Positions 9,905-11,692 of a stretch of 14,367 bases of DNA are shown here, in pieces. Source of the DNA: a virus (lineage: Duplodnaviria; Heunggongvirae; Uroviricota; Caudoviricetes); IMG/VR virus record IMGVR_UViG_2562617113_000020, positions 1-14,367 of that record. One strand, written 5' to 3'. Both the position numbers and the translations under genes were made by a program. The notes beneath the pieces are model-generated. The model did no database searches. It was not told the DNA's origin and saw nothing but the letters and a program-made list of their open reading frames with translations. Position 1 is the first letter of the stretch; the number at the start of each line of letters is the position of its first letter.

Positions 9905-10459
9905 ATGCTTATTGGCTATGTACGTGTGTCAACAAATGACCAGAACACAGATCTACAACGTAATGCGCTGAACTGTGCAGGATGCGAGCTGATTTTTGAA
10001 GACAAGATAAGCGGTACAAAGTCCGAAAGGCCGGGACTGAAAAAACTGCTCAGGACATTATCGGCAGGTGACACTCTGGTTGTCTGGAAGCTGGATCGGC
10101 TGGGGCGTAGTATGCGGCATCTGGTCATTCTGGTTGAGGAGTTGCGCGAACGTGGCGTTAATTTTCGCAGCCTGACGGATGCTATTGATACCAGCACACC
10201 GATGGGGCGTTTTTTCTTTCATATGATGGGTGCCCTGGCTGAAATGGAACGAGAACTGATTGTTGAACGAACAAAAGCTGGACTGGAAGCTGCTCGCGCA
10301 CAGGGACGAATTGGTGGACGTCGTCCCAAACTTACACCAGAACAATGGGCACAAGCCGGAAGATTAATTGCAGCAGGAACTCCTCGCCAGAAGGTGGCGA
10401 TTATCTATGATGTGGGTGTATCGACTTTGTATAAGAAGTTTCCGGTCGGAGATAAATGA
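9905..10459 (+). CDS. pin: Serine DNA invertase, Gin/Pin/Hin/Cin family
   Basis: Product MLIGYVRVSTNDQNTDLQRNAL...LVVWKLDRLGRSM...RSLTDAIDTS...GRFFFHMMGALAEMERELIVERT...GRIGGRRPK is a near-canonical Gin/Pin sequence (catalytic Ser in VRVSTNDQ); RBS AGGGAG at 9892-9897; 184 aa from ATG 9905 (the ORF track begins at an upstream ATG, 9869). Confidence 0.92.
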   Translation: MLIGYVRVSTNDQNTDLQRNALNCAGCELIFEDKISGTKSERPGLKKLLRTLSAGDTLVVWKLDRLGRSMRHLVILVEELRERGVNFRSLTDAIDTSTPMGRFFFHMMGALAEMERELIVERTKAGLEAARAQGRIGGRRPKLTPEQWAQAGRLIAAGTPRQKVAIIYDVGVSTLYKKFPVGDK

Positions 10460-10479
10460 AACCGTAGCACGTCGTATGC
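10459..10479 (+). repeat. Direct repeat copy 1 (AAACCGTAG-CACGTCGTATGC), immediately after invertase stop
   Basis: Matches 11479-11500 (AAACCGTAGGCACGTAGTATGC) at 20 of 22 aligned positions; the pair brackets the GIY-YIG gene. Confidence 0.4.
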
Positions 10480-10516
10480 AAGATCGTGCTGCGGTTTATG
10501 CTTATCACTTAAAGAC

Positions 10517-11290
10517 TCAAAAATTAGGTGAGTAACGGACCGGGGACATAGCTCCTTTTTTTCTTAATTCATCTGGTATTTTTTTTCCAAGATAAAGATT
10601 TGCTATTTCAGGTGGGGCTTCTCGACCTTCAAAACCATAGCGAGAACTTTGTGTTGCCTCAAAGTCAGTATCTTCGTCCCAGTATTTCATCGTAGGGAAA
10701 TTTTCACGTGTTGATTTGAGCCATTTATCAGCAATGAAAACCCCTCGAACGATCCCCCTTACAGTAGCAAGAATGACTTCTGCTTGGCTGGCGCGAGAGA
10801 CATTAATGCGCCAGCTAAATCGAACCGCATCATAAAGCTCTGAATCCTTTGCACTTCTGTTAACGGAAATCATTAATGCTTTATGATGAAATGTTATGGT
10901 TTCGGGTTGATATGTTGCTATCAACTCTTTGACATGCGCGGCGCCGAATTCATTGCTGCCAGCACCATTCATGATATTCGTTAACCCAGGGTAGGCATCA
11001 ATAAGTGCTGCTTCAACTTCGTACGCCGTCTTTTCATCAGTCATTCCGTGTCGATGGATGACGTGGATAACTTCAAGTCCTGCTAACCTTATTTCTCTGA
11101 TTTGCTTTAGCTTGTTGCTCAGTAACTCGTCATCATCAGCCGCTGCCACCTCACCGCGCATATGGGCAAATACGCGGTTACCTTTGCCTTTCCCTACATA
11201 GAAGGTGCTTCCGTCCCTAGGATCAATCAATCGGTATACATACCAGCCAAGGTGTTCAATTACTCCAGAAGGAAACTCAGTAATATCCAT
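10517..11290 (-). CDS. Stand-alone GIY-YIG nuclease-domain protein with ~160-aa C-terminal region of unknown function
   Basis: N-terminal motifs YVYRL-(10 aa)[10 protein letters not shown] with downstream His, Glu (EVEAAL) and Asn (NIMNG) at spacing typical of the GIY-YIG catalytic core; ATG at 11288-11290 (MDITEF...) preferred over the upstream TTG at 11339-11341; no recognisable SD. Confidence 0.75.
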
Positions 11291-11341
11291 TTTGCAATAT
11301 CTGTGAATTATTTGTGAGACGCATATTAATGAACATTGCAA

Positions 11342-11692
11342 GGGCTCACAACTAGTAGTGTTGAGAAAGCCACCGGGAAAATGAGGCTAACCCTTTGAAT
11401 TTACATAGCGCAAAAAGATACCTTTCCTCATAATGTGATCTAATTTTATGTTTCGTTTGATGATTGGACCGGTCTCGAAAACCGTAGGCACGTAGTATGC
11501 GTTAATTTATGAACAAACTACTTGTCTGCTGTTTTTCTGTCATTAGTCGTATATAGAATGATTCTCTATGCCTAACAAAGCATCACCAGTGCTAGATTAC
11601 GTTGTAGTCACTGTTTAAATATCCAGATAAAACATTTCCTTCTGGGTTGAATGAGTGATAGAGTTTCACCCATTAGACCCCTTGGAGGAATT
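11342..11692. promoter_or_regulatory. AT-rich divergent intergenic region, presumed to hold promoters for the GIY-YIG gene (-) and the methyltransferase gene (+)
   Basis: 350 bp without credible ORFs between divergently oriented genes; RBS GGAGG at 11684-11688 before the methyltransferase ATG (11693). No promoter hexamers confidently assigned. Confidence 0.3.
11479..11500 (+). repeat. Direct repeat copy 2 (AAACCGTAGGCACGTAGTATGC)
   Basis: Imperfect direct copy of 10459-10479, located in the intergenic region upstream of the GIY-YIG gene. Confidence 0.4.

Follow-up and report, generated by a model that had tools for sequence, protein, structure and literature searches.

Genes and features of the locus

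We analysed a 14,367 nt stretch of phage DNA (IMG/VR record IMGVR_UViG_2562617113_000020, positions 1 to 14,367; hereafter the window) in which an earlier sequence-only reading had noted an imperfect direct repeat on either side of a GIY-YIG gene. The features that bear on the repeat are listed by position and strand.

7986-9843, no strand assigned: invertible segment with tail-fibre genes, lying between two Pin crossover sites (7986-8005 and 9824-9843)
9869-10459, + strand: pinE-type serine DNA invertase (Pfam Resolvase, 3.3e-52, and HTH_7)
10459-10497, + strand: HP1, intact copy of a 39-nt hairpin (fold, covariation and an identical 21-mer at empty sites)
10517-11290, - strand: PD-T4-3/CMoRE, a GIY-YIG type IV restriction endonuclease of 257 aa (PADLOC, PDB and motif)
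11291-11465, - strand: upstream arm of the PD-T4-3 module, putatively promoter-bearing (conserved block)
11466-11487, + strand: att core scar, the anticodon stem-loop of tRNA-Ser(CGA), serU (21/22 identity to K-12 serU, alignment A1)
11479-11500, + strand: copy 2 of the repeat, the 5′ arm and first loop half of a second HP1 whose 3′ arm is missing (full-length counterparts in loci L005, L007 and L008)
11501-11545, + strand: tail of the deleted element copy, the sequence that normally follows HP2 (alignments to L094, L013 and K-12 ykgJ-ecpE)
11651-13124, + strand: EcoRII-type C5 cytosine methyltransferase, the next cargo module (Pfam DNA_meth_N and DNA_methylase, two ORFs)
13159-14367, - strand: EcoRII-like type II restriction endonuclease (Pfam EcoRII-N and EcoRII-C; PADLOC REase_II, 1e-232)

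The invertible segment carries tail-fibre and tail-fibre-assembly Pfam domains on both strands and is bounded by an inverted repeat, AAACCTTGGTTTGGGAGAAG and CTTCTCCCAAACCAACGTTT, that is 95% complementary. The invertase gene that follows is annotated as pinE in RefSeq relatives, and its TGA stop overlaps the first base of the direct repeat. At the other end of the region the methyltransferase reading frame is broken: compared with strain R12, a single nucleotide is missing from a homopolymer at 12333 and again at 12363. In related genomes the EcoRII-like endonuclease gene is followed by ssrA (context in L001, L004 and L014).

The translated GIY-YIG gene matched the PADLOC PD-T4-3 model over its full length (positions 1-256 of 256, E 1.6e-140) as well as PDB entry 9U75 (E 1.4e-171), and contains the GIYxY-YIG motif (Y17, Y19 and Y31). 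These matches identify it as the already known single-gene defence enzyme PD-T4-3/CMoRE, for which a structure has been solved. The enzyme is specific for 5hmC/ghmC DNA and was active when cloned under its "native promoter" (PMC12923530). Upstream of the gene, a block around AGGCTAACCCTTTGAAT (11384-11400) is kept in all PD-T4-3 loci and shares 78% identity over 69 nt with the arm upstream of another cargo gene, in L094; the promoter within this arm is a putative one, as a consensus scan of 11291-11480 called no sigma-70 site. PD-T4-3 is the only gene in the segment between the repeats, the G+C content of the module is 0.42-0.44 compared with approximately 0.50 for pinE, and no integrase or other accompanying recombinase was found between 10459 and 11500.

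The two repeats are homologous copies of different subtypes

Both repeats lie exactly where they had been placed. Copy 1 (10459-10479, AAACCGTAGCACGTCGTATGC) shares its first base with the end of the pinE stop codon, and copy 2 occupies 11479-11500 (AAACCGTAGGCACGTAGTATGC); the two are identical at 20 of 21 bases, with one C/A mismatch and one indel (an inserted G). When the whole window was scanned for direct pairs no more than 2 kb apart with at least 20/21 matches and at most one indel, this was the only pair found, against a mean of 0.025 per shuffled window in 40 dinucleotide-preserving shuffles, a value that taken alone is suggestive rather than overwhelming. Neither 21-mer recurred elsewhere in the window at up to three mismatches. 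It is the comparative data that establish the copies as homologous: both are kept in other E. coli genomes, and in L005, L007 and L008 a complete hairpin stands in the right-hand position and leads into the sequence that also lies downstream of it at sites lacking the gene.

Comparison with other phages also indicated that the copies belong to different hairpin subtypes, each with matching copies elsewhere. Copy 1 is identical to unbulged HP1 copies that lie next to pin, and copy 2 has the extra base typical of HP1 copies adjacent to att cores, which argues against a target-site duplication. Two further properties had escaped the sequence-only reading, namely that copy 1 is half of an inverted repeat and that the sequence at 11466-11487, which overlaps copy 2, matches the tRNA-Ser anticodon arm. 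The tandem CGTAG half-sites noted in each copy were not conserved, since homologous copies read CGCAG, CGCCG or CGCGG, and the proposal of a repeated operator built on them fails on the same ground.

HP1 is part of a conserved two-hairpin element

Copy 1 corresponds to the 5′ arm and half of the loop of HP1, which consists of a 5′ arm (10459-10471), a 13-nt loop (10472-10484) and a 3′ arm (10485-10497) that together form a 13-bp stem. Its predicted fold is stable on both strands (-23.6 kcal/mol, z = -5.2 on the + strand; -19.8 kcal/mol, z = -4.1 on the - strand), and it sits between convergent genes, directly abutting the pinE stop codon (0 nt) and separated by 20 nt from that of the GIY-YIG gene. 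HP1 with its flank matched 212 phage records, among them HK97, HK106, HK633, HK75, phi80 and Stx phages, and 86 of 120 IMG/VR matches to the 15-mer of the loop folded as HP1, with 37 distinct stem sequences. Structural conservation was assessed on 54 distinct copies, which were folded sequence by sequence and anchored on the loops; this procedure replaced a MAFFT and RNAalifold analysis of the same copies that gave a poor consensus because a bulged base misaligns the 5′ arm. Compensatory changes were found at five or more HP1 positions. The suggestion that the repeat might be a structured-RNA element was thus borne out by both fold and covariation.

HP1 proved to be the first stem-loop of an element of approximately 100 nt with two hairpins (HP1-HP2), in which the stems covary and the loops are conserved. 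Many lambdoid and e14-like phages of E. coli carry it where the late tail-fibre/invertase operon ends, immediately ahead of the att/dinI/int region, and in HK97 a fossil of the 3′ end of pin directly precedes HP1. The G.U pairs of HP2 are invariant, and HP2 was more stable on the + strand in all 54 copies (-17.1 versus -10.1 kcal/mol). No Rfam family covers HP2, and a literature search for the HP1 and HP2 loop sequences returned no match. The sole database match of HP1 was a sub-threshold one to the 3′ hairpin of Rfam CssrB (RF02799; 32.4 bits against a gathering threshold of 76), in which only this hairpin aligned and 129 model positions were deleted. CssrB is a northern-verified Shigella transcript of approximately 180 nt, the 3′ end of which was assigned from a predicted rho-independent terminator (PMC3071730).

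HP1 is probably a bidirectional terminator and 3′-end hairpin shared by the convergent pinE and PD-T4-3 genes. The sequence 3′ of the stem is an imperfect U-tract on either strand (UUUAUGCUUAU on the + strand; UUUCAUUUAU, also given as UUUCAUUUAUCU, on the - strand), and where the element follows tfa the - strand tail reads UUUUUCUUUUUUGC (L004). HP1 was not called by a consensus terminator scan of the window because its 13-nt loop exceeds the limit of 8 nt in that scan. Late phage transcription is normally antiterminated, so that a simple terminator role may be incomplete, and the invariant loops of HP1-HP2 suggest a role beyond that of a generic hairpin.

Copy 2 is a decayed element joined to a serU attachment core

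The sequence immediately to the left of copy 2, and its first 9 nt, form the serU core scar. No tRNA gene was called in the window by ARAGORN, only this 22-nt fragment of serU being present. In E. coli O157:H7 the same arm continues into the whole 3′ half of serU and 349 bp of its downstream flank, where it forms a genuine serU attR. The joint between the serU core and HP1 falls in the GAAA(A)CCG common to both. The left boundary of the segment has only AAACCG(T)AG in common with the core and lacks CCGGTCTCG.

Two products predicted for particular origins of this joint were sought in 5,426 E. coli genomes. The reciprocal junction of the pin stop with the 3′ half of serU, expected after integration at a secondary site, was found in none, and neither was an attL junction of the serU 5′ half with HP1, expected if the core-HP1 arrangement were a native serU attP. 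Loci of the Dcm type that lack the GIY-YIG gene still keep the serU core (L006), and other phages have ssrA cores fused to HP1 at the position where the serU core meets it here. Passive accretion alone does not explain why two unrelated cores, those of serU and ssrA, should border HP1 at one and the same nucleotide.

To the right, alignment A2 showed that the copy 2 element has lost approximately 78 nt internally. Copy 2 gave no significant structure when folded (z -1.9 and -0.8); it is a decayed relic of a second HP1-HP2 that is unable to form the hairpin. A candidate alternative hairpin between copy 2 and 11523-11537 was attributed to chance because its z was only -1.9 and the pairing was not maintained in L013 or L004. 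Among loci that are otherwise 97-99% identical, copy 2 differs at 2-3 positions. The sequence that follows it (11501-11545) could be aligned to the left-hand element of L094 as well as to the dinI-proximal stretch in L013 and K-12 ykgJ-ecpE. Read on the - strand, it resembles the 3′ terminus of a dinI-like gene; its similarity to dinI proper is weak (79% over 29 nt).

Empty and filled sites define a cargo slot

The GIY-YIG gene had been read as a discrete, cassette-like module, and the comparison upheld this, as its edges at the repeats are sharp. When other genomes were compared by BLAST, the matching sequence began precisely at 10459, and its right end fell either at 11484-11487 or precisely at 11500. 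We also found the empty sites that had been proposed as a check. In L009 (which lies at the lambda att site), L010 and L012 the gene is absent and the pinE or tfa stop is followed directly by a single HP1-HP2, whose 21-mer is identical to copy 1. Filled sites were represented by the window, L001, L004, L007 and L008. On this sequence comparison PD-T4-3 would qualify as a moron, being present or absent between conserved sequences that are otherwise adjacent.

The same module was found after pinE, after a lambdoid tfa (in prophages without pin) or after an acyltransferase gene, and the slot downstream of invertase and tail-fibre genes holds other cargo as well: McrA in e14 and phage 689R6, PD-T4-3 with the EcoRII restriction-modification genes in the window, and another restriction enzyme in L008. 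In L094 a different cargo gene, encoding an SDH-type protease, lies between two copies of the element, and in the circular phage L013 HP1 recurs at three consecutive junctions of cargo, with a degenerate ssrA core ahead of two of the copies. It had been envisaged that the motif might turn out to be a common dispersed repeat unrelated to cargo boundaries. Common it is, with matches in 212 phage records, but not unrelated to such boundaries, since it is always located where the tail-fibre/invertase module meets the att/cargo region.

Origin of the repeat

We consider it most probable (roughly 0.7) that the locus contains a defence moron bounded by a recurrent terminator or module-boundary element and built by the joining of att-proximal modules. 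The two 21-mers are the left halves of two copies of the conserved phage hairpin HP1. PD-T4-3 would travel as a module made up of HP1, the gene, its upstream arm and the serU att core, and this module would derive from a phage formerly integrated at serU, as its att-proximal end. Copy 2 would represent the start of the HP1-HP2 of the neighbouring module, joined to the serU core at GAAA(A)CCG, which later lost the approximately 78 nt comprising the remainder of HP1 and all of HP2 and is presumably a non-functional scar as a result. The direct repeat would accordingly be a trace of the assembly of att-proximal cargo modules one step at a time, each with a boundary hairpin of its own that it either brought along or abutted. 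As to the joint between the serU core and HP1, we infer that it arose by integrase action at a secondary site, as a native attP arrangement or by microhomology-mediated illegitimate recombination.

The locus can also be read differently, with the two repeats as attL and attR of a small serU-specific island that integrated into HP1 of a resident prophage as a secondary site and was mostly deleted later. This reading would account for a right boundary that is a near-perfect serU anticodon stem-loop core, for the O157:H7 arm, and for a joint within sequence common to core and HP1 at the place where ssrA cores are joined in other phages. An integrase duplicates the core only, however, and the left boundary shares just AAACCG(T)AG with it, without CCGGTCTCG; the repeated unit is the 39-nt hairpin itself, no reciprocal junction was found and no integrase lies next to the module in the window. 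We regard such an island as unlikely, and as overlapping with stepwise joining in that it is one possible route to the serU-core/HP1 joint. A somewhat less doubtful suggestion, which we advance tentatively, is that HP1-HP2 acts as a pseudo-att landing pad, its 5′ edge being a preferred crossover (between TGAA and ACCG) that mimics a tRNA stem-loop for tRNA- or tmRNA-specific tyrosine integrases, so that defence modules with serU or ssrA cores are captured serially and one hairpin is left per module. If so, the defence island downstream of the tail-fibre/invertase genes was built by serial capture, and the invariant loops of both hairpins would have a specific protein or RNA partner.

That HP1 might be an attC-like site, with cargo moved as circles by Pin or by a phage tyrosine integrase and the two repeats serving as the recombination sites of the cassette, seems slightly less probable again than the island. 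The single hairpin copy at empty sites, the bulged base in many copies of what is indeed a hairpin, the three successive junctions in L013 and the clustering of breakpoints at the first nucleotides of HP1 with four left partners (pin stop, tfa stop, serU core and ssrA core) are all compatible with it. The right breakpoints, by contrast, are not constant and fall beyond the 3′ arm of HP1, within HP2 or within the loop; the repeats represent different subtypes, and no recombinase accompanies the module, which also follows tfa in prophages that lack pin. Recombination by Pin at the repeats was rejected both on this last ground and because the real crossover sites (7986-8005 and 9824-9843) are unlike HP1, which in a test for Pin/Gin/Cin sites (TTCTCCCAAACC-type 12-bp inverted half-sites with a 2-bp core) shared only AAACC with one half-site. 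The integron R′ and R″ core motifs and IntI were likewise absent. The product of precise repeat-mediated excision (pin, one repeat and the Dcm upstream sequence) was found in none of the 5,426 genomes, so that all three of the predicted junction or deletion products were missing from this set. Insertion by target duplication or, as the sequence-only reading had suggested, by site-specific recombination at a dedicated cassette site is not supported, given the differing subtypes, the relic nature of copy 2 and a module without a recombinase. Chance similarity, or a pair of CGTAG operators for a regulator of the GIY-YIG gene, is the least credible of the alternatives. The window-wide expectation of approximately 0.025 is not astronomically small and copy 2 is situated some 190 nt 5′ of the PD-T4-3 start, but both copies are homologous, flanks included, to a widespread element, copy 1 is downstream of the gene rather than at its promoter, CGTAG is not kept among homologues, and copy 2 varies among nearly identical loci.

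The stepwise joining of modules provides a base-level account of how a known defence gene, PD-T4-3/CMoRE, may be packaged and moved among E. coli prophages, in which an apparent cassette repeat is a recurrent boundary hairpin plus an att scar. As the repeats mark the edges of a known anti-phage gene in the cargo region of a prophage, the arrangement is a case of ordinary phage mosaicism, and for prophage annotation the hairpin flags a cargo slot.

Comparison with known systems

Morons and mosaic module boundaries in lambdoid phages were reportedly described by Juhala, Hendrix and colleagues in comparisons of HK97 and HK022. Like those morons, PD-T4-3 is an additional gene, with putative regulatory flanks of its own, lodged between neighbours that adjoin each other in related phages; it is variably present among close relatives and has a slightly lower G+C content, sharp joints and a terminator-like hairpin at its boundary. 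It differs in having the boundary hairpin on both sides, one with a tRNA att-core scar, which indicates that the module originated at the att-proximal end of a different phage and did not enter by simple insertion. The slot after invertase and tail-fibre genes, with its interchangeable defence genes, also resembles the defence hotspots of prophages and satellites, such as e14 pin-mcrA and those of P2 and P4; what is conserved at the flank here, unlike in those hotspots, is a structured hairpin element, which becomes duplicated as modules accumulate.

The likeness to integron cassettes extends to a single, promoterless-looking cargo gene, imperfect hairpin repeats with bulged copies, and repeat-separated arrays (L013). 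There is, unlike in integrons, no IntI, attI or RYYYAAC/GTTRRRY core: apart from the serine invertase the window encodes no recombinase, phage integrases in relatives are tens of kb from the module, and the ends of HP1 (TGAAACCG paired with GCGGTTTATG or GCGGTTGGCT) did not match the R″/R′ consensus. The cargo moreover has its own upstream arm and the opposite orientation, and its repeats are of different subtypes, one of them truncated. Nor does the segment resemble a transposon with a target duplication, as the copies differ by a subtype-specific indel and PD-T4-3 is all that it contains.

The 3′-terminal hairpin of the CssrB family consensus, AAACCGcaGCaCGuCuuAAGCaaGAaCGuGCugCG, equals HP1 on the same strand, but the CssrB body of approximately 130 nt is absent here and the hairpin alone matches. 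HP1-HP2 further recalls the lambda sib/tI retroregulator as a conserved, non-coding RNA hairpin between the late genes or b region and attP/int. Sib, however, acts on the int-sense strand, and the G.U pattern of HP2 indicates the opposite, late-operon sense. The two are separate elements, both being present in L009 and in HK97, where the annotated sib site is immediately to the right of HP2. HP1-HP2 is a by-product of this analysis that may be of more interest than the repeat itself, as an element of approximately 100 nt that occurs in hundreds of lambdoid phages, lacks an adequate Rfam family and is placed exactly where late transcription meets the integration module. Should it have a dedicated function, for instance in halting antiterminated polymerase, in keeping 3′ ends stable or as a recombination hotspot, it would bear on both phage gene regulation and the assembly of defence islands.

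In the HK633 record the element is labelled as attP; we did not adopt this label, as the copy at K-12 ykgJ-ecpE, where HP1, HP2 and the dinI-like tail are all present, looks like a prophage scar rather than an attB. Elsewhere, part of the HP1-HP2 element is mislabelled by PGAP as a "capsid protein" pseudogene.

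Layout of the prophage arm and its repeat pair

The window covers the right arm of an E. coli prophage, with the following contents in order:

Mu-like baseplate and tail genes (first in window order)
7986-8005 and 9824-9843: Pin sites bounding the invertible tail-fibre segment
9869-10459: pinE, serine invertase
10517-11290, minus strand: GIY-YIG gene
11651-13124: EcoRII-type methylase, frameshifted in the window
13159-14367: EcoRII-like endonuclease

With alternative tail-fibre C-termini and assembly proteins encoded on both of its strands, the 1.86 kb Pin-bounded segment is a host-range switch of the standard type. 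In the related E. coli strain R12, a prophage 99% identical to the window extends from an integrase adjoining glaH to ssrA and is bounded by a 188-bp repeat that includes the last ~25 nt of ssrA; these limits therefore place all three cargo genes within the prophage, where they lie between invertase and attR. Relative to R12 the methylase is split into two ORFs by single-base homopolymer deletions at 12333 and 12363 (T8 to T7 and A7 to A6), which are probably sequencing errors, and the cognate endonuclease ORF is intact. Were the deletions real, the cell could still be protected by the host methylase Dcm, whose target is likewise CCWGG.

The GIY-YIG protein gave a full-length PADLOC match to PD-T4-3 (E 1.6e-140), matched PDB 9U75 (E 1.4e-171) and carries the Y17/Y19/Y31 'GIYxY-YIG' motif. 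Judged by these similarities it is PD-T4-3, now also named CMoRE, the product of a gene that is already known and structurally solved. PD-T4-3 is a type IV restriction endonuclease directed against 5hmC/ghmC DNA of T-even phages (PMC12923530; 10.1101/2024.12.20.629700). The GIY-YIG segment was matched in 853 of 5,426 complete E. coli genomes, and McrA occupies the PD-T4-3 slot in K-12 e14 and phage vB_EcoM-689R6.

Two imperfect direct repeats flank the gene: copy 1 (AAACCGTAGCACGTCGTATGC, 10459-10479), whose first base is the final base of the pinE stop codon, and copy 2 (AAACCGTAGGCACGTAGTATGC, 11479-11500), which differs from it by one inserted G and one mismatch. The positions proposed in the sequence-only reading were exact. 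No further match to either 21-mer with up to 3 mismatches was found in the whole window, and a window-wide scan for direct pairs with at least 20/21 matches and at most one indel within 2 kb returned this pair alone, against a mean of 0.025 in 40 dinucleotide-preserving shuffles. Taken alone this statistic is modest; the homology of the two copies is established by comparative sequence data.

Copy 1 belongs to a conserved two-hairpin element

Copy 1 makes up one half of an inverted repeat, with AAACCGTAGCACG (10459-10471) and CGTGCTGCGGTTT (10485-10497) as the paired arms of a stem that encloses a 13-nt loop. The resulting 39-nt hairpin, HP1, folds at -23.6 kcal/mol (z -5.2) on the plus strand and -19.8 kcal/mol (z -4.1) on the minus strand. 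At other loci compared here (phages, prophages and IMG/VR records, numbered with the prefix L) a second hairpin, HP2 (GGCTGG...TCGATAGTGCGAGTATTGAATGA...CCAGCC), comes after HP1, with GTTACCGATTTTAC next, giving an element of ~100 nt. Matches to the element were present in 212 records of the phage collection, including HK97 (20938-21040), HK106, HK633, HK75, HK542, phi80 and many Stx phages.

The HP1 fold was present in 86 of 120 IMG/VR matches to the loop 15-mer, with 37 different stem sequences. Stems covary (e.g. CCGCAGCCACG/CGTGCTGCGG, GCCACCGCGTCG/CGGGCGGCGGC and GCTGCGGCACG/CGTGCCGCAGC) and loops are constant, although copies were gathered by the exact loop 15-mer, which in part guarantees that this stretch of the loop looks conserved; the stem is kept despite variant loops in K-12 ykgJ-ecpE, L004 and L013. 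Counted position by position, double changes affect at least 5 HP1 pairs and 2 HP2 pairs. HP2 contains invariant G.U pairs, and its plus-strand fold was the more stable in 54/54 distinct copies (mean -17.1 versus -10.1 kcal/mol on the minus strand). Because of these G.U pairs and the greater plus-strand stability, HP1-HP2 would most likely act as an RNA transcribed in the same direction as the late (tail-fibre/invertase) genes.

The sole Rfam signal for the element was RF02799, CssrB, at 32 bits, below the gathering score of 76. The consensus of the 3'-terminal CssrB hairpin is HP1, which is thus partly covered in Rfam as the CssrB tail. CssrB was seen on northern blots as a ~180-nt Shigella transcript, its 3' end set by a predicted rho-independent terminator (PMC3071730). 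We put at about 0.7 the probability that HP1 is a 3'-end and terminator hairpin that would close the late operon and also serve the convergent PD-T4-3 gene, whose stop codon lies 20 nt away. Literature searches with the HP1-HP2 loop sequences gave nothing and, as far as our tools show, the full element and its recurrent place beside att cores and cargo modules are apparently undescribed.

HP1-HP2 occurs in hundreds of lambdoid and Stx phages. Examples are 1495-1610 of L016 (HK97), 3655-3775 of L009 and numerous IMG/VR loci (L019-L136). Between ykgJ and ecpE in K-12 it persists as a scar (L017, 8213-8315). PGAP labels 81 bp of it a 'capsid protein' pseudogene, and the HK633 record labels it attP. 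A mis-spaced HP1-HP2 pattern run against genome contigs matched only a 455-bp contig of coverage 0.7 in a Gram-positive assembly, Gemelliphila palaticanis (L139), probably through contamination by enterobacterial phage DNA.

Copy 2 is a relic of the same element

Window positions 11479-11545 align (alignment A2) with an HP1-HP2 element from which ~78 columns (the remainder of the loop, the 3' arm and HP2 in full) have been deleted between TATGC and TACGC. Beyond the deletion lies the tail normally found after HP2 (compare the left copy in L094), which weakly resembles the 3' end of a dinI-like gene. Copy 2 lacks a complementary arm, the fold of the region is not significant (z -1.9 and -0.8), and the copy 2 sequence drifts among loci otherwise 97-99% identical. 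Copy 2 is a relic.

Edges of the PD-T4-3 module

At the left edge, matches either continue from pinE or start exactly at 10459, the upstream neighbour being pinE, a lambdoid tfa (L004) or an acyltransferase module (L013). The right edge falls into three classes.

Classes of right edge of the PD-T4-3 module
Class A: 245 genomes including the window; copy 2 cut after GTATGC, then methylase
Class B: L005, L007 and L008; match runs exactly to 11500; complete HP1 as copy 2, then HP2
Class C: O157:H7 and others; match ends at 11484-11487; no copy 2

Empty sites, in related prophages that lack the GIY-YIG gene, lie at several chromosomal positions and show one HP1-HP2 after the stop codon of pinE or tfa. 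The suggestion that one repeat copy might persist there is borne out at L009 (lambda att site adjoining bioA), L010 and L012. HK97 carries a fossil pin 3' end (TTTCGGGAGATAAATGA) directly 5' of HP1.

Positions 11466-11487 (GGACCGGTCTCGAAAACCGTAG) share 21/22 identity with the anticodon stem-loop of K-12 tRNA-Ser(CGA), serU, and the right boundary of the module is, on this match, an att scar. In class C the arm extends, at 96% identity, across the entire serU 3' half and 349 bp of the sequence downstream of serU, which identifies the junction as a genuine attR of a serU-integrating phage with PD-T4-3 as its last gene. One such junction (L003, O157:H7 SS52, 4975-5430), with the PD-T4-3 arm, serU 3' half and 349 bp flank, lies at ~0.31 Mb, far from serU, and resembles either an attR that has moved or bacterial DNA captured during aberrant excision, in the manner of a specialised transducing phage.

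HP1 follows the serU core in classes A and B, the joint falling within GAAA(A)CCG, which is common to core and HP1. In L044, L051, L063 and L089 the partner of HP1 is an exact 23-nt ssrA 3' core, and the junction falls at the identical nucleotide (TGGTGGAGCTGGCGGGAGTTGAA followed by ACCGCAG). Two unrelated cores, the ssrA T-loop end (..TTGAA/ACCG..; these four loci) and the serU anticodon loop (..TCGAAA/ACCG..; window 11466-11487), are fused to HP1 at one nucleotide, which passive accretion does not explain.

Origin of the repeat

Copy 1 has exactly the sequence of the unbulged HP1 that adjoins pin at empty sites and many IMG/VR loci, copy 2 has the extra base of att-core-adjacent copies, and the right copy of class B is a further subtype (CCCGTAGCCACG). 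Copies 1 and 2 are therefore of separate ancestry, which speaks against target-site duplication. The sequence-only reading had raised site-specific recombination at the repeats. As a dedicated cassette recombination site they fail: no recombinase travels with the PD-T4-3 module, HP1 resembles neither Pin sites nor integron attC cores, and the predicted products are absent, with 0 of 5,426 genomes containing a pin stop codon joined to the serU 3' half, a serU 5' half joined to HP1, or pin, one repeat and the methylase upstream region in succession.

An origin by abutting of att-proximal modules is well supported. The PD-T4-3 module (HP1, gene, upstream arm and serU core) is the att-proximal end of one phage lineage, placed against the HP1-HP2(-dinI) unit of another module, which later decayed. 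Two loci repeat the pattern. L013, a circular 43.7-kb phage with degenerate ssrA cores 5' of two of its three HP1 copies, has the order acyltransferase, HP1, PD-T4-3, core with truncated HP1, methylase-EcoRII, ssrA flank with core and HP1-HP2, dinI-int. In L094 an SDH-type ClpP-like protease gene lies between two element copies and has in common with the PD-T4-3 module an upstream block (78% over 69 nt) and a core-like AGTCTCGAAAAACCG.

The core/HP1 joint itself may be native to an attP, or may have been made by an integrase acting at a pseudo-att site or by illegitimate recombination at microhomology. That the HP1 5' edge is a true preferred crossover point helping defence-island assembly seems unlikely; if true, it would merit more attention. 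The arrangement is of the same kind as the moron/defence-hotspot architecture of lambdoid phages.

Deposited under E. coli CT01 as 'plasmid unnamed3', L013 (NZ_CP081794.1, 43,671 bp) is the complete circular genome of a phage. Its regulation is lambdoid, its head HK97-type and its tail Mu-like; the integrase is of dusA type, attP holds a 5' fragment of dusA, and the cargo region retains fossil att cores of both ssrA and serU. The L094 protease (IMG/VR 2547132488_000019, 1560-3200) is a 334-aa SDH-type ClpP-like serine protease with no PADLOC match; its gene fills the PD-T4-3 slot, and the upstream block common to both modules marks it as a candidate, uncharacterised defence or cargo gene.
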